A stretch of 64,000 nt of DNA from Candidatus Nomurabacteria bacterium (GCA_023898525.1 CP060227.1:85079-149078); one strand, 5' to 3'; positions 2,376 through 48,220 are shown, numbered from the stretch's first letter. Notes: generated from the letters alone by a model not told the origin. Program-made: numbers and translations.

Positions 2376-3953
2376 ATGTCCAAACCAAAATATTTTCTTT
2401 ATGCTCGCAAAAGCACCGAAGACGATGACAAACAAGTCATGTCTATCGAGGCTCAGTTATTTGAGTTGAGAGAATTCGCACATAAAGAAAATCTTGAAAT
2501 CCTAGCGGAGTTTCAAGAGTCGAAAAGCGCAAAGACTCCCGGTCGTGAACAGTTTGCACAAATGATGACGCGCATTGAAGCAGGAGAAGCAAATGGCGTT
2601 TTGGCGTGGCATCCTGACCGTTTGGCGCGAAATAGTATTGATGGCGGGCGCGTCATCTACGCAGTAGACACACAAAAGGTCACGTCTTTGCGCTTTCCGA
2701 CATTTTGGTTTGAACCCACTCCACAGGGGTTGTTTATGTTGCAAGTGGCGTTCGGACAGTCGAAATACCATTCGGACAATCTGACGCAGAATGTGAAGCG
2801 AGGGATGCGCCAAAAAGTGCGGCGAGGCGAGTGGCTCACCAAAGCTCCATTTGGCTATGTGAATAATCCGCGTACGAGAAATATTGAACCGCATCCCGTG
2901 CATAGCAAGATCATCGTGCGGGCTTTTGAGGAGTACGCCAAAGGTGAGCATGGATTGGTTTCTCTCGCCGACTTTTTGTCGCTGCATGGAGTAACGACTG
3001 GCAAGGGAACGCCACTTGGCAAAGCTTCCATCAAACGCATACTGATTAATCGAGCATATCTCGGTTTTGTGAAGCATCATGATGAATGGTTTGAAGGAAG
3101 CTTTGCACCAATCATTTCCCCGAAATTGTTTGAAGCTGTCCAAAAGGTATTGGTACAGCGAGAACGTCCTCGTAAACGGAAAGCGAAGCATGATTTTCCG
3201 TTTGTGGGTATTTTTGAGTGCGGAGAGTGTGGGAGCATGTTCACTGCCCAGTGGGCTACCGGCAAGTGCGGAGGAAAGTATCGATATTATCGTTGCACCA
3301 AGAAGAAAGGCATATGCTCCCAAGGGTACGTCCGTGAGGACATTCTCGCTGACCAACTAAGGGAACAGCTTCAAACCATTTCGCTTTGCGATGCATACAC
3401 TGACTACATGCTCGGCAAAATCGAAGAATGGGAGCGCGAAGAAACTTCCGCATCGCAAAGTGGTGCGCAAAATCTTTCAGAAAATATAAAAGCCAGTGAG
3501 GCACGCATGGATAAACTGGTGGAGAGTTATTTGGATGGCGATATACCGAAAAGCATCTATTTGAAAAAGAAAGACGAGATCATGCGTGCCACCTTGTCTT
3601 TGAAGGAGAAAAAGAAAGATTTTGCACACCAAGGAAATAATTGGGTCGAACCCCTGCGTGAGTGGATTTTAGATACGAAACAAGCCACCTTTTTATCCTC
3701 CAGCGATGATTTCTCCGAAATCGCCGCTTTCGTCAAAAAAGTCGGAACGAACCCCTTGGTTCGTGACAAATCCGCGCGCTTCGCCGCGCCCGTCCCGTCC
3801 CAATTCGTCGCCACACGAAAGGGTGTTTTGGCTTCTTCTTTTTCTCGCGCGGCTTCGCCGCGCTCGCTGTGTCGAGACGAAGTCTCGTTTTGTGATCCCA
3901 CGGGGAATCGAACCCCGATTTGCAGGATGAAAACCTGCTGTCCTAACCATTAG
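2376..3953 (+). CDS. Large serine recombinase (resolvase/invertase N-terminal domain, recombinase domain and zinc ribbon).
   Basis: N-terminus YARKSTEDDDKQVMSIEAQ; DRLARN motif; zinc-ribbon CGECGSMF...RYYRC; C-terminal coiled-coil region. The last ~60 codons are encoded by the right inverted repeat and the tRNA-Glu gene, so the true C-terminus is uncertain. Confidence 0.75.
   Translation: MSKPKYFLYARKSTEDDDKQVMSIEAQLFELREFAHKENLEILAEFQESKSAKTPGREQFAQMMTRIEAGEANGVLAWHPDRLARNSIDGGRVIYAVDTQKVTSLRFPTFWFEPTPQGLFMLQVAFGQSKYHSDNLTQNVKRGMRQKVRRGEWLTKAPFGYVNNPRTRNIEPHPVHSKIIVRAFEEYAKGEHGLVSLADFLSLHGVTTGKGTPLGKASIKRILINRAYLGFVKHHDEWFEGSFAPIISPKLFEAVQKVLVQRERPRKRKAKHDFPFVGIFECGECGSMFTAQWATGKCGGKYRYYRCTKKKGICSQGYVREDILADQLREQLQTISLCDAYTDYMLGKIEEWEREETSASQSGAQNLSENIKASEARMDKLVESYLDGDIPKSIYLKKKDEIMRATLSLKEKKKDFAHQGNNWVEPLREWILDTKQATFLSSSDDFSEIAAFVKKVGTNPLVRDKSARFAAPVPSQFVATRKGVLASSFSRAASPRSLCRDEVSFCDPTGNRTPICRMKTCCPNH
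3765..3896. repeat. Right copy of the 132-bp inverted repeat. It overlaps the 3' end of the recombinase ORF and the last 4 nt of tRNA-Glu.
   Basis: Direct comparison with 2216..2347 (reverse complement, 131/132 identical). Confidence 0.9.
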
Positions 3954-20802: not shown

Positions 20803-22110
20803 ATGCAAAATCATCCAGATCTAATACCACCATCAGTCCGCCATCAAACAAGTAACAAGAAAAATAACCTCCTGGGAATCAGTCTATCTTTGCTCTTAGC
20901 CTTGGGTGCTTTTTTTACTGGTTTTCAAATGAATAACATTCTCTCAGCCGAAGGGCAGTCAGCCAGCATTTTTTCAATTTTTGCCGTAGAAGCTAAACCG
21001 ACTATAGACAGCGACACCATAGACCTCAGTGAATTCTGGAAAGTTTGGCAACTATTAGATGAAAAATTCACCGCCGCCAGTACTACCCAGACAATATCCG
21101 ATCAAGATAAAATCAACGGTGCCATTAAGGGTATGGTCAAAACATACGGCGACCCATACACTGTCTACCTACCACCTAAAGAAAGCCAAGACTTTGCCGA
21201 AAATATTGCTGGTAATTTCAGTGGTATAGGTATGGAAGTAGGAATCAGAAATAATGTGGTAACTGTAATTTCACCTCTACCAGACACACCCGCCGAACGA
21301 GCTGGGCTACTCGCTGGTGACCTAATCACTAAGATTGACGACAGTAGCACCGAAGGTATGTCTATCGATGAAGCTGTGCACCTGATACGCGGCGAAAAGG
21401 GAACTGAGGTCAAATTATCAATTTACCGTGAAGGTGAGTTGGAAATTAAAGAGTTCACTATCGTTCGCGACACCATCACGATACCGACTGTAAAAACAGA
21501 AGAAAAAGATGGGGTTTTCACTATCCGGATTTACAGCTTCAACGCCGTAGCCGAAAGCAAGACTCAAGAAGCCCTTAGAGAGTTCGCCACCAGTGACGCC
21601 AAATCTCTTATCTTAGACCTACGTGGCAATCCCGGCGGTTATCTACAGAGCGCAGTCGCTATTGCCAGCTACTTTTTACCAACCGGCAAAGTCGTAGTTC
21701 GAGAACATTTTAGCGAGACCGATGAAGACAGACCTTATCGTAGCCAAGGACGCACTTTTTATGATTTCAATCCAAAAAACTTCGTTGTCTTAGTTGACGG
21801 CGGTTCAGCCTCAGCGTCAGAAATTCTAGCCGGCGCGCTTAAAGAACACAAAGTGGCAACCGTCATCGGTACCAATACCTTTGGAAAAGGTTCGGTTCAA
21901 GAACTACTAAACCTAGACTCCGGTGCCTCACTTAAAGTAACAGTGGCACGTTGGCTAACACCCGAAGGCAAATCAATATCAGATGGTGGATTAGAGCCGG
22001 ATATACACATAAGTCGAACTCCGCAGCAAATCATGGATAATGTAGACCCGCAATTTGACGCCGCTATTGATTTTCTTGAAGGCAAGGAAATACACAGTGA
22101 AGAAAACTAG
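20803..22110 (+). CDS. ctpA: Carboxyl-terminal processing protease (S41) with a PDZ domain.
   Basis: PDZ motif GLLAGDLITKIDD; S41 core DLRGNPGGYL; N-terminal TM. Confidence 0.8.
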   Translation: MQNHPDLIPPSVRHQTSNKKNNLLGISLSLLLALGAFFTGFQMNNILSAEGQSASIFSIFAVEAKPTIDSDTIDLSEFWKVWQLLDEKFTAASTTQTISDQDKINGAIKGMVKTYGDPYTVYLPPKESQDFAENIAGNFSGIGMEVGIRNNVVTVISPLPDTPAERAGLLAGDLITKIDDSSTEGMSIDEAVHLIRGEKGTEVKLSIYREGELEIKEFTIVRDTITIPTVKTEEKDGVFTIRIYSFNAVAESKTQEALREFATSDAKSLILDLRGNPGGYLQSAVAIASYFLPTGKVVVREHFSETDEDRPYRSQGRTFYDFNPKNFVVLVDGGSASASEILAGALKEHKVATVIGTNTFGKGSVQELLNLDSGASLKVTVARWLTPEGKSISDGGLEPDIHISRTPQQIMDNVDPQFDAAIDFLEGKEIHSEEN

Positions 22111-44862: not shown

Positions 44863-46254
44863 CTATTTCTTCTTATCTACACTGATTCCTAGCTCTAGCA
44901 GTTGCTCTATCTCGAGTGACTTGGGTCCGTTCATTACAGCCGTTTGTCCTTTGCGGGTCATTGGAAAGGCTTGTACCTCACGCAGGGCTTCCTCACCGGT
45001 CAGGTTCATAACATTTCGTTCGACCCCAAGAGCGATTCCACCATGTGGCGGTGTACCATACTTAAAGGCTTCAAGCATGTGTCCAACCTTATCTTGCATT
45101 TCCTCTTCGCTGTTACCCATTATCTTGTAGACCGCCTCTAGTATCTCTGGCTTATGAGCCCTGATACTACCTCCGCCAGCTTCGTATCCGTTACACACCA
45201 AGTCGTACTGTGTGGTGAGTATCTTATCTATGTTTTCACCTTTAAGTAGCCACTCTAGATGCTCAGCTTTTGGCATCGAGAATGGGTTGTGTGAGAAGGT
45301 CCAAGTACCTTTGTCGGTCTTTTCAAAAAAAGGAAAATCAACCACCCAAGCATAAGCGAGAACACCGTTTTTCTTATCTTCTTCAGTTCTAAGATCAAAC
45401 TTATCATCACCATATTTTTCTATCGAGTCAGCGTAGGTCACGACCGGGAAAGGCTTATGCTTTATGGTGTAGCCCATTGACTCCACTACAGAAGTAATCA
45501 TGTCTTCGATTGTCCTCATCACATCATTTCGCTCTACAAACGACATCTCAACATCAATCTGAGTATGCTCATAGCCTCGGTCAGCTCGCAAATCTTCATC
45601 TCGAATCGCGCGCGCAATCTGCACATACCGCTCAAACCCGGCCGTCATCAACATTTGCTTATATTGTTGTGGTGACTGCGGTAGGGCGTAGAATTGCCCT
45701 GGATTATGACGACTTGGCACCACAAAGTCTCGCGATCCTTCCGGAGTTGACTCAGTCAATATCGGCGTTTCAATCTCCACAAAATCCTGATCCATAAGGA
45801 AGTTGCGACAGCGACGCACGAACTCGCTACGAATTCTGATATTCTTTTGCATACGCTCGGTACGCAAGTCTAGATAGCGATACTTCAATCGTACCTCTTC
45901 ATCTTTATTAATAGAATCTTCACCCAGATCAAACGGTGGCGTATCAGACTCGGCCAAGACATCAATGCCAGTAATCTCAAGTTCAATGTCACCATTTTGT
46001 ACCCCCTCTTTAACCATCTTTTCAGGCCGCTTATTTACTTTTCCAGTCACAGCTACCACATATTCTGACTTTAGTTCTTTAGCTATTTCTAGTACTTCTG
46101 GCTTACCAAAAACCACCCCTTGCACTTTGCCGCTACGATCACGAAAATCAAAGAAAGCCATCTTCCCTTGCAAGCGAGCCACATCAACCCACCCCTTAAT
46201 CGTTACCTCTTTGTCTATATGTTCACTAAGTGAACCAATGAGAATTCTTTCCAT
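44863..46254 (-). CDS. aspS: Aspartate--tRNA ligase, short archaeal/eukaryal type (no GAD insertion).
   Basis: Class II motifs: FRDE-like RAIRDEDLRADR, GGGSIR, and PPHGGIALGVER near the C-terminus. ~460 aa, too short for a bacterial-type AspRS. Confidence 0.7.
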   Translation of the reverse strand: MERILIGSLSEHIDKEVTIKGWVDVARLQGKMAFFDFRDRSGKVQGVVFGKPEVLEIAKELKSEYVVAVTGKVNKRPEKMVKEGVQNGDIELEITGIDVLAESDTPPFDLGEDSINKDEEVRLKYRYLDLRTERMQKNIRIRSEFVRRCRNFLMDQDFVEIETPILTESTPEGSRDFVVPSRHNPGQFYALPQSPQQYKQMLMTAGFERYVQIARAIRDEDLRADRGYEHTQIDVEMSFVERNDVMRTIEDMITSVVESMGYTIKHKPFPVVTYADSIEKYGDDKFDLRTEEDKKNGVLAYAWVVDFPFFEKTDKGTWTFSHNPFSMPKAEHLEWLLKGENIDKILTTQYDLVCNGYEAGGGSIRAHKPEILEAVYKIMGNSEEEMQDKVGHMLEAFKYGTPPHGGIALGVERNVMNLTGEEALREVQAFPMTRKGQTAVMNGPKSLEIEQLLELGISVDKKK

Positions 46255-46283
46255 AATAATTTACTTGAAGCTAGGAACAGAAA

Positions 46284-46520
46284 ACCGCCCCTATTACTTA
46301 TTATTTACAATTTATAAATAATATAGGGGCGGTTTCTTTAAACCGCGGTGCCACCCTATTTCCTAGTTATCACCTCTGACAACTAGGCACTTAAGTGATA
46401 CGCGTGTCGAGCGTTAGACGGAGGGTTCTACTTGGAGTTTTAAGGAGCGCGCGAAGCGCGCTCCTTAAACCCCGTTCTTCCCTCACCTCAGCGGTAGTCA
46501 GCCGCTTCATTGGCTTATTC
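46284..46520 (-). ncRNA. T-box riboswitch leader upstream of aspS. Specifier GAC (Asp) sits in a short Stem I loop; the antiterminator bulge is UGGCACC; a terminator hairpin follows.
   Basis: Minus strand AAATAGGGTGGCACCGCGGTTTAAAGAAACCGCCCCTATATT matches the T-box consensus AANNNGGGUGGNACCGCG. The antiterminator helices AAATAGGG/CCCTATATT flank that bulge. The terminator is GAAACCGCCCCTAT...ATAGGGGCGGTTTTC followed by a U-tract. The Stem I hairpin AAGCGG-CUGACUA-CCGCU (46490..46506) carries GAC. A long GC stem with a UUCG loop (46441..46468) is also present. A promoter TAGCAA-17-TATATT lies at ~46525..46555. Confidence 0.7.
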
Positions 46521-46573
46521 ATAATATATAACAAATGATACCATTTTGCTACCTTTTTAATTGATAAAAGTTA

Positions 46574-46605
46574 GAGCCTGTGATTTTGTCACAGGCTCTA
46601 AAAAA
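46574..46605 (-). terminator. Terminator of the 46606..47097 gene.
   Basis: AGAGCCTGTGA-CAAAA-TCACAGGCTCT immediately after the TAA stop, followed by a U-rich tract. Confidence 0.65.
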
Positions 46606-47257: not shown

Positions 47258-48220
47258 TTAGAGTTTTAATCCGATCACTTCCCGCACCCTATCCATAGTT
47301 TGTCCCGATATCTTTTGTGCTTTTTCTACTCCCTCGGCCAAAACATTTTTTACTTGTGCATCACTTATACCGTCTCTTTTTTCTCGCATTGGTGCAACCA
47401 GAGCCTCGATATCGGCAAATAATAATTCCTTCAAGACCTTGTACTTGCCTTTGTTTTCCTCATACAAAGCATCAAGATCAACTATGTCTTTACCAGTAGC
47501 TTCATGAACAACTTTGTGGATACTGTAGACATTTTCCGGACGATCACCAGTAGAATCTGTCACTATGCCCATCACCGCTTTTTTAATTTCTTCCGAAGAG
47601 CCAAATAACGGAATAGTGTTTTTATAACTCTTGCTCATCTTTTGTCCGTCCGTTCCCGGCACCACCCCCACCCCTTTCACAATCATTTCTTTTGGTTCTT
47701 TCAAGACGTCCCCGTAGGTGTTATTAAACTTAGTCACCGCCTCGCGAGTATACTCAATATGCTGTCTCTGATCTTCGCCCACCGGCACTAAATCGGTATC
47801 GTAAAGCACAATGTCTCCAGCCATCAGCATTGGATAAGTAAATAGTCCCGCATTTGCTTCAAGACCTTTAGCAACTTTATCTTTGTATGAATGAGCCTGC
47901 ATCAAAAACGGCACTGTTACCATGCAGTTCAGTACCCAACCCATTTCCGTATGATCCGGATTGTCAGACTGTCTAAAAAGTGTAACTTTGTTCGGATCAA
48001 CTCCCGCTGCCAGATAGTCACGAACAATTTGGTAAACGTTATCACGCAACGTCTTTGCATCCTTAACAGAGGTCAAAGCATGGTAATCAGCTACCATTAA
48101 GAAGACTTCATTATTTTCATCATTCGTTAGATCAACCAGTGGTTTCAAAGCCCCGAAGTAATTACCAATATGCAAAACTCCCGAAGGCTGGAGTCCAGTT
48201 AAAATACGCTTTTTTGCCAT
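47258..48220 (-). CDS. trpS: Tryptophan--tRNA ligase.
   Basis: HIGNYFGA and KMSKS motifs. Confidence 0.9.
   Translation of the reverse strand: MAKKRILTGLQPSGVLHIGNYFGALKPLVDLTNDENNEVFLMVADYHALTSVKDAKTLRDNVYQIVRDYLAAGVDPNKVTLFRQSDNPDHTEMGWVLNCMVTVPFLMQAHSYKDKVAKGLEANAGLFTYPMLMAGDIVLYDTDLVPVGEDQRQHIEYTREAVTKFNNTYGDVLKEPKEMIVKGVGVVPGTDGQKMSKSYKNTIPLFGSSEEIKKAVMGIVTDSTGDRPENVYSIHKVVHEATGKDIVDLDALYEENKGKYKVLKELLFADIEALVAPMREKRDGISDAQVKNVLAEGVEKAQKISGQTMDRVREVIGLKL

Follow-up and report, generated by a model that had tools for sequence, protein, structure and literature searches.

A T-box leader joining an ultrashort Stem I to an intrinsic terminator upstream of aspS in a Candidatus Nomurabacteria genome

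Introduction

For RNAs that read other RNAs, the T-box is the textbook case. Here, we analysed the T-box leader that precedes aspS, the gene of an aspartyl-tRNA synthetase (AspRS), in a Candidatus Nomurabacteria bacterium (GCA_023898525.1, CP060227.1:85079-149078). The whole stretch of DNA that was analysed, 64,000 nt in length, is called the window, and positions given without a locus number are counted along it; the leader and aspS both lie on its minus strand. An original prediction, made from the sequence alone, had described this leader as a canonical T-box riboswitch with an Asp (GAC) specifier upstream of an archaeal-type aspS, and the sequence features that it listed were all found at that place on the minus strand.

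T-boxes with an ultrashort Stem I were reportedly described by Sherwood, Grundy and Henkin in 2015 in actinobacterial ileS leaders, and Saad and co-workers are said to have shown in 2013 that an Asn-responsive NT-box of Clostridium acetobutylicum controls the indirect Asn-tRNA pathway. According to a 2020 review (PMC7583486) and a 2024 research paper (PMC11297988), rapid capture of the tRNA by transcriptional T-boxes generally depends on a long Stem I that carries an interdigitated T-loop platform; a Stem I that is short or ultrashort is characteristic of translational T-boxes, mostly those of actinobacterial ileS; and truncation of Stem I makes Stem II, Stem IIA/B and the K-turn essential. 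The structures of the Mycobacterium tuberculosis and Nocardia farcinica ileS T-boxes (6UFG and 6UFM) are summarised in the same two papers. In TBDB, the transcriptional T-boxes were collected with the Rfam model RF00230, and a short-Stem-I model was used only on Actinobacteria and on RF00230 hits (PMC7778990). The aspS leader of the window is best filed as an architectural variant of the T-box that joins an ultrashort Stem I to a terminator, a combination unreported in the literature searched.

The aspS leader aligns with the full T-box model

The leader spans ~245 nt between the terminator of an upstream open reading frame (ORF) and the aspS start codon at 46254. In a permissive search, RF00230 was aligned to it from end to end (model positions 1-219, window positions 46519-46322, minus strand) with a score of 53.7 bits, which corresponds to E = 5.6e-11 for the local search of 551 nt and to E = 6.5e-9 for the whole window. 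Posterior probabilities were high at the K-turn, at Stems II and III, in the IIA/B region and at the T-box/antiterminator, and 72 Stem I positions were collapsed to 3 nt. When the whole window was searched at the Rfam gathering threshold, no T-box was reported and a tRNA-Glu was the sole match. The original prediction had named the lack of an RF00230 hit above threshold as a ground for refutation, and taken literally this ground applies at the gathering score; in view of the full-length, low-E-value match of the permissive search, we did not regard the prediction as refuted. Compared with shuffled controls, the fold of the leader gave z = -6.3, and z = -8.8 when the terminator was included. 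In addition, a covariance model (R1) was built from an alignment of the 12 leaders that share the architecture of the window's leader; R1 scored the window element at 138.5 bits and found one copy and no second T-box in the whole window. For trpS, which lies just upstream, no T-box was found with either Rfam or R1. Judged by sequence comparison, the RF00230 match and the conserved, covarying structure of 56 leaders (see below) confirm the aspS leader as a genuine, conserved T-box riboswitch. The words 'canonical' and 'textbook' did not survive: the whole distal Stem I is missing, the score is 53.7 against a curated cut-off of 93 bits, and an ultrashort Stem I is paired with a terminator, which is atypical according to the reviews.

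The leader can be followed from its 5′ end (coordinates of the main elements are collected in Table 1). The hexamer TATATT would serve as the promoter and place the transcript start a few nucleotides before the K-turn. A -10 hexamer (at least 5/6 matches) was present within 30 nt upstream in 20 of 26 related leaders, compared with 10% of random windows, and in most of these leaders it ends 5-7 nt before the start of the model, as does TATATT in the window at 7 nt. The K-turn has the 5′ side CC-AAU-GA (46513-46507) and the 3′ side GA-GG (46489-46486); the K-turn columns of RF00230 were aligned to AUGA...GAG, and the K-turn fold itself is predicted from the sequence. Stem I is a helix of 4-5 bp, (A)GCGG/CCGC(U), in a hairpin (46506-46490) with the 7-nt terminal loop CUGACUA (46501-46495), and GAC stands in this loop at 46499-46497, just as had been proposed. 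The parts of a long Stem I, namely the internal specifier loop, the AG bulge and the distal loop that forms the elbow platform (IDTM), were not found in the window leader. A hidden long Stem I was considered and rejected: the conserved -10 box 5-7 nt before the model start and the terminator of the neighbouring gene leave no room for one, so the RNA would begin at Stem I and contain no distant partner strand with which a longer Stem I could form. The 'long Stem I' that Rfam drew in two relatives (L023 and L027) was likewise rejected as an artefact that contains many non-canonical pairs and uses the neighbour's terminator.

Stem II consists of a 5-bp basal helix (GAGGG/CCCUC), an S-turn in the form of a purine-rich internal loop (GAAGAA / AGUAGAA), of which AGUAGA and AGAA are invariant across the alignments, and a distal helix that ends in a GC-rich, UUCG-capped hairpin, GGAGCGCGC-UUCG-GCGCGCUCC (46464-46444). 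This insert had been singled out as potentially noteworthy, but it turned out to be merely a lineage-specific extension of the Stem II tip, which occurs once in the window and is replaced by other extensions or by none in relatives, most of which lack it; the idea of a repeated or mobile palindrome was rejected on the same observations. Stem III has 11 bp and a GAGG loop, and its hairpin was recovered in the minimum free energy (MFE) fold. The RRRNG motif that precedes it is as described in PMC7778990.

The T-box core, AAAUAGGG-UGGCACC-GCGGUUUAAAGAAACCGC-CCCUAU (46362-46323), forms an antiterminator in which helix A1 (AUAGGG/CCCUAU) and helix A2 (GCGGUUU/AAACCGC) flank the 7-nt bulge UGGCACC. 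The T-box sequence itself, AGGGUGGCACCGCG at 46357-46344, matches exactly the published 14-nt consensus AGGGUGGNACCGCG, which forms the 5′ side of the antiterminator with its 7-nt bulge (PMC11297988), and UGGC at 46353-46350 is proposed to pair with the 3′ GCCA of tRNA-Asp. The terminator hairpin, GAAACCGCCCCUAU...AUAGGGGCGG (46336-46285), is followed by the U-tract UUUUCUGUU (46284-46276) and ends 22 nt before the ATG of aspS; its 5′ arm, ACCGCCCCUAU, is the 3′ arm of the antiterminator, so the two helices exclude each other. The terminator folds at -23.2 kcal/mol, compared with -14.0 kcal/mol for the antiterminator segment alone; the default state would therefore be termination, and the terminator/antiterminator switch of the original prediction holds.

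The leader is conserved and covaries in Patescibacteria

Conservation was examined in the aspS loci of related Patescibacteria. The exact T-box core was present in 28 of 81 aspS loci, in each case upstream of aspS on the same strand and nowhere else, and R1 gave full-length matches in ~27 of the 80 Patescibacteria loci, again always upstream of aspS on the same strand. R1 also matched dozens of metagenome contigs. The metagenomes were scanned with a single pattern in which the loop and the UGGN base were left free; about half of the 120 pattern matches were discarded as chance matches in GC-rich DNA, which had neither a Stem I hairpin nor an R1 match, and the remaining ones were combined with the genome loci to give 56 distinct leaders.

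When the 12 leaders that share the window's architecture were folded jointly with RNAalifold, Stem I, Stem II and the bulged antiterminator were recovered without guidance. Overall, 93.8% of the cells of the 12-leader alignment were paired, compared with 37-51% when the partners were slid, and compensatory changes occurred in 19 of 27 pairs; none of 500 shuffles reached the observed covariation. The 56 leaders gave a similar picture, with 93.4% of cells paired (42-50% slid) and compensatory changes in every helix. For the Stem I hairpin, 97.2% of cells were paired across the 56 leaders and all four pairs changed in a compensatory manner, one of them being GC in 24, AU in 18, CG in 9 and UA in 4 leaders; the specifier hairpin is thus conserved in orthologous leaders, a point on which the original prediction had staked its reading. 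The C-stem of the K-turn was paired in 95.8% of cells, compensatory changes were found in 5/5 pairs of each of two Stem II helices (10/10), and the antiterminator pairs were conserved with covariation in both the 12 and the 56 leaders.

At Stem IIA/B, the MAFFT alignment lost the register of the 3′ strand, and complementarity was scored by a script with two controls. The complementarity between the loop and the downstream segment, summed over the 12 leaders, was 50, compared with 39.2 ± 2.6 for shuffled controls (1 of 5000 reached 50) and 42.9 ± 3.0 for swapped downstream segments (27 of 1807 reached 50). The IIB sequences themselves vary between leaders (ACGC/GCGU, CUUG/CAAG, CUGCU/AGCAG and ACCGC/GCGGU). 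A hairpin equivalent to the terminator, followed by at least 4 U, was present in ~26 of 28 related leaders, and the distance from it to the next start codon ranges from ~30 to >500 nt, with other ORFs intervening at several loci.

The relatives tested scored 34-63 bits with RF00230, all below 93. These scores, together with the way in which TBDB was collected, would explain how the class went unnoticed. The original prediction had remarked that the element would be noteworthy in a lineage without reported T-boxes, and the host belongs to such a lineage, the Patescibacteria or candidate phyla radiation: no paper on T-boxes in the candidate phyla radiation, in Patescibacteria or in Parcubacteria was found in the searchable literature, of which coverage was incomplete and to which TBDB and the Rfam full alignment did not belong.

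Some individual loci are recorded here. One leader (L011:2171-2420) scored 131.7 bits with R1, but in the 90 nt past its antiterminator neither a terminator hairpin nor a U-tract could be recognised; aspS begins 172 nt downstream. In four loci (L017:1957-2496, L021:1891-2496, L023:1969-2460 and L031:1988-2494), an ORF of 163-201 aa lies between the T-box terminator and aspS, and these ORFs would be co-regulated with aspS; two of the four have weak, sub-threshold matches to HEPN-like Pfam families. Additionally, an unannotated ORF of ~130 aa occupies the same place in L013 and L030.

The loop triplet and the bulge point to tRNA-Asp, and in relatives to tRNA-Asn and tRNA-Ser

In a fixed register, the loop triplet of the 56 leaders was GAC in ~41, GAU in 1-2, AAC in 9 and UCC in 4, and the bulge read UGGC in 52 and UGGU in 4; the GAU and AAC alternatives for which the original prediction had suggested a search thus both exist. 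The tRNA-Asp genes of two Patescibacteria metagenome-assembled genomes (MAGs; L050 and L043), one of which is a sibling with a GAC T-box, have the anticodon GUC and G73, in agreement with the proposed match between the C of UGGC and the discriminator base. Leaders with GAC or GAU stand upstream of short, bacterial-type AspRS genes and, in metagenomes, also of true archaeal/non-discriminating AspRS genes (NF003483, 462-516 bits).

In five orthologous AAC leaders (L025:133-289, L033:2121-2433, L042:920-1080, L055:2293-2417 and L067:2220-2398), the Asn codon AAC replaces GAC. Four of them (L025, L033, L055 and L067) directly precede a bacterial-type AspRS, which suggests that this enzyme charges tRNA-Asn in these loci. 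In L042, the AAC T-box is followed by a non-discriminating archaeal-type AspRS (1113-2462) and then by a short bacterial-type AspRS (2501-3907), an arrangement consistent with a leader that senses tRNA-Asn in a host using the indirect route to Asn-tRNA. These relatives resemble the C. acetobutylicum NT-box in that AAC stands upstream of AspRS genes, including the non-discriminating archaeal-type gene of L042, but they have an ultrashort Stem I and a single specifier, and the window reads GAC. The UCC (Ser) leaders precede serS (TIGR00414, 407-432 bits).

T-boxes of the serS type were observed on metagenome contigs of 52-59% GC (L097:5716-5879, minus strand; L107:4769-4932, minus strand; L113:3590-3758, plus strand; L127, L171, L174 and L192). 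They have an ultrashort Stem I with a 3-bp stem and the loop AAUCCAA or CAUCCAA, a UGGC bulge, a classical CCGUUA F-box and a GC-rich terminator. A further T-box-like leader was seen in L099:3095-3261 and L110:2595-2761 (both on the minus strand), L112 and L196, which scored 36-39 bits with R1; it has a 5-bp Stem I, the loop UAGAUGGG (possible GAU, AUG or UGG) and a UGGC or UGGU bulge. In L110, an 80-aa ORF rich in Cys (CxxCxGxG) comes next, with nusA behind it, and the target is not obviously related to amino acids.

Proposed mechanism, comparison with described T-boxes and alternative explanations

We consider it very likely that the leader is a tRNA-Asp-sensing T-box that controls aspS by transcription attenuation. 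Transcription would start a few nucleotides before the K-turn, and the nascent leader would form the ultrashort Stem I, whose terminal loop would offer GAC to the GUC anticodon of tRNA-Asp. Since no distal Stem I platform would contact the tRNA elbow, the Stem II S-turn may buttress the codon-anticodon helix, positioned by the K-turn and the IIA/B pseudoknot by analogy with the actinobacterial ileS T-boxes that have an ultrashort Stem I. With uncharged tRNA, the 3′ GCCA would pair with UGGC of the bulge and stabilise the antiterminator against the terminator, allowing read-through into aspS; with charged tRNA or none, the terminator would form and transcription would stop at the U-tract. What the sequences show directly is that the helices are all present, conserved and covarying, that the specifier suits the target gene and the bulge suits the discriminator base seen in relatives, that terminator and antiterminator exclude each other and that a long Stem I is absent; that tRNA binds, that Stem II compensates for the short Stem I and that aspS is regulated in this way is our inference.

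Like the window leader, the actinobacterial ileS T-boxes have a Stem I reduced to a K-turn and a short helix, whose terminal loop holds the specifier; a double T-loop platform for the elbow is absent from both, whereas Stems II (with its S-turn) and III, the IIA/B pseudoknot and the T-box bulge are retained. The ileS T-boxes differ in having a Shine-Dalgarno sequestrator, whereas the leader described here has an intrinsic terminator with a U-tract; in responding to Ile instead of Asp (Asn and Ser in relatives); and in their host, which is actinobacterial there and patescibacterial here. With the transcriptional T-boxes of Firmicutes (RF00230, e.g. Bacillus subtilis tyrS), the leader has in common the K-turn, the Stem II S-turn, Stem IIA/B, Stem III, the 14-nt T-box with its 7-nt bulge, the antiterminator/terminator alternative, an aminoacyl-tRNA synthetase as target and a specifier that ends in C; in contrast to them, it lacks the part of Stem I above the specifier (specifier loop S-turn, AG bulge, and distal loop/T-loop platform).

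Several observations weigh against attenuation by tRNA-Asp. The RF00230 score of the leader lies below the curated threshold, because the ultrashort Stem I lacks 72 positions of the model. The IIA helix of the window is weak, with 2 bp and a U-U mismatch. The sole tRNA gene in the window is that of tRNA-Glu, and GUC and G73 are known from the tRNA-Asp of relatives. The loop CUGACUA has a U between GAC and the conserved A, most relatives having CUGACA, and the rule 'three bases before the conserved purine' would give ACU (Thr) in the window. Furthermore, reviews hold that a T-box acting during transcription captures its tRNA fast enough only through the elbow contact (PMC7583486), and this argues against a transcriptional switch and leaves capture within the transcription time window unexplained. 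The same kinetic argument, by which loss of the elbow contact is tolerable only in translational switches (PMC7583486), would favour a T-box that acts on translation and not on transcription termination, as would the fact that the ultrashort-Stem-I T-boxes in the literature covered are all translational (PMC7583486, PMC11297988). We regard translational control as improbable here: the competing helix is a GC-rich hairpin directly before the U-tract, in the design of an intrinsic terminator; the helix excludes the start codon, which follows 22 nt later, and neither the helix nor the spacer CUAGCUUCAAGUAAAUUAUU contains a Shine-Dalgarno-like sequence; and the hairpin with its run of U recurs in nearly all related leaders at very different distances from the start codon, at several loci with ORFs in between.

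Even less probable, in our estimate, is a decaying canonical T-box that has lost Stem I and acts as a constitutive partial terminator without tRNA sensing. Decay would be in line with the reduced genomes of Patescibacteria, with the lack of a part that is considered essential in transcriptional T-boxes and with the absence of a recognisable terminator in L011, but it is difficult to reconcile with a K-turn, specifier, S-turn, pseudoknot, exact 14-nt T-box and terminator that are kept across AspRS orthologues of 50-90% identity, with compensatory changes in every helix, down to all pairs of the tiny Stem I, and with specifier changes to AAC and UCC that go along with matching target genes. A specifier other than GAC, e.g. 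ACU (Thr) or CUG or CUA (Leu), by which the leader would sense another tRNA, has in our view an equally slight chance. It draws on the loop CUGACUA of the window and of its closest relative, L002, in which ACU stands next to the conserved 3′ purine, and on the TBDB rule that gives priority to the frame before this purine (PMC7778990). However, the extra U is confined to these two leaders, and 41 of 56 leaders have a 6-nt loop of the CUGACA type with GAC directly before A; upstream of AspRS genes the triplet varies only to GAU and AAC, and the gene regulated by the GAC, GAU and AAC leaders is AspRS. In addition, the C of the bulge requires G73. Both tRNA-Asp and tRNA-Asn have G73, whereas bacterial tRNA-Thr and tRNA-Leu normally have A73. 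The pattern among relatives, together with the target gene and the discriminator base, led us to reject ACU, CUG and CUA as specifiers, and a tRNA-Asp-sensing transcriptional T-box remains the preferred reading.

Shorter relatives and what the class may mean

A group of 13 genome leaders, called type B, has an ultrashort Stem I, a single-stranded linker of 17-45 nt that ends in an AAAGUG-like motif, and then Stem III and the antiterminator. These leaders have no S-turn, no Stem II and no IIA/B pseudoknot, and keep the terminator and aspS; the shortest of them measure 106-125 nt from the K-turn to the antiterminator. They were aligned with the R1 model, the MAFFT alignment being structurally out of register at Stem I. 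The glyQS-type T-boxes likewise have no Stem II or IIA/B, so that in both kinds a linker connects Stem I directly with Stem III and the antiterminator; unlike type B, which has only an ultrashort Stem I, glyQS keeps a long Stem I with the elbow platform. The window's own element keeps Stem II and is not a type B leader. If functional, type B leaders would lack both known auxiliary tRNA contacts.

We tentatively suggest, with slightly less than even confidence, that Patescibacteria and other uncultured bacteria possess an unrecognised class of terminator-coupled T-boxes without an elbow platform, of which the type B subset would be the smallest natural T-boxes. If this is true, type B leaders would recognise tRNA by little beyond a 3-bp codon-anticodon helix in a 6-8 nt loop and the NCCA end, and a different mechanism of capture would be needed, which might involve an RNA polymerase that is slow or pauses, a cofactor such as a protein that binds the K-turn, or an RNA contact that has so far escaped notice. 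By joining an ultrashort Stem I to a classical terminator, the window leader and its 50-plus relatives offer a natural test of the kinetic argument on the elbow contact, as well as compact tRNA-sensing modules of 140-200 nt, possibly of ~106 nt, for structural work and engineering. They also extend T-box regulation to the candidate phyla radiation, with its reduced genomes and few known regulators. In addition, they point to a blind spot of annotation, since all members tested score only 34-63 bits against a cut-off of 93, and Rfam-based pipelines and the collections derived from them would miss the class.

When the window leader is folded to its MFE, the 5′ GCCA in the K-turn region (46513-46510) pairs with UGGC of the bulge (46353-46350), and the T-box bulge of L021 and L023 pairs with the linker GGUGCUAC. 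Such pairings may imitate the acceptor end of tRNA within the leader, or may be coincidental.

The regulated gene and its neighbourhood

The AspRS encoded downstream of the leader passed two bacterial models, NF001750 with 575 bits (cut-off 443) and TIGR00459 with 521 bits (cut-off 374), and failed the archaeal/non-discriminating aspartate-tRNA(Asn) ligase model with 227 bits (cut-off 353). It aligned to the Thermus thermophilus AspRS (PDB 1efw) in two blocks, residues 7-291 with 8-296 and 299-459 with 418-577, so that residues 297-417 of the latter were skipped. From the two-block alignment and the NCBIfam scores, it follows that the enzyme is a bacterial-type AspRS without the insertion (GAD) domain of ~120 aa; the 'archaeal-type aspS' of the original prediction has to be dropped. 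Contig JACKGB010000003.1 of assembly GCA_020632175.1 carries a gene for an identical AspRS, the closest relatives all come from Patescibacteria (Paceibacteria / Parcubacteria-group) MAGs, and the Patescibacteria AspRS orthologues retrieved are all similarly short (458-476 aa). The ORF upstream of the leader gave no Pfam or NCBIfam match, and its terminator marks the aspS leader as a separate transcription unit.

Table 1. Elements of the aspS leader, neighbouring genes and type B leaders of relatives (window positions, except for numbered loci).
Feature	Position	Strand	Basis or detail
trpS	47258-48220	(-)	Upstream of the 163-aa ORF
Upstream ORF, 163 aa	46606-47097	(-)	Between trpS and the aspS leader; own terminator
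Intrinsic terminator of the upstream ORF	46571-46601	(-)	Terminator scan: 13-bp stem, then CUUUUAUC
Putative -10 element TATATT	46523-46528	(-)	Weak -35 TAGCAA 17 nt upstream
Ultrashort Stem I including K-turn	46486-46513	(-)	RF00230 alignment, RNAalifold, covariation
Specifier triplet GAC (Asp codon)	46497-46499	(-)	Proposed partner: GUC anticodon of tRNA-Asp
Stem II	46421-46485	(-)	Basal helix, S-turn, extended distal helix
Stem IIA/B pseudoknot	46400-46420	(-)	IIA CG(U)/(U)CG; IIA loop ACGC and downstream GCGU form IIB
AAGUG (RRRNG motif), Stem III and AA	46360-46392	(-)	MFE fold; RF00230 alignment
Antiterminator	46323-46359	(-)	Helices A1 and A2 around the 7-nt bulge
Intrinsic terminator	46276-46336	(-)	Hairpin 46336-46285 and U-tract
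aspS, 463-aa AspRS	44863-46254	(-)	NCBIfam models; alignment to PDB 1efw
Type B leaders	L004:2323-2443, L023:1832-1938, L021:1755-1860, L017:1834-1943, L026:2314-2431, L027:2329-2453, L055:2293-2417, others		aspS leaders

The only other non-tRNA Rfam match in the window was a sub-threshold match to Rickettsia sRNA47 (RF02800) at 21784-21901 on the minus strand, with 35.9 bits compared with a cut-off of 60 and E = 1.3e-5, which covers model positions 40-157 of 316.

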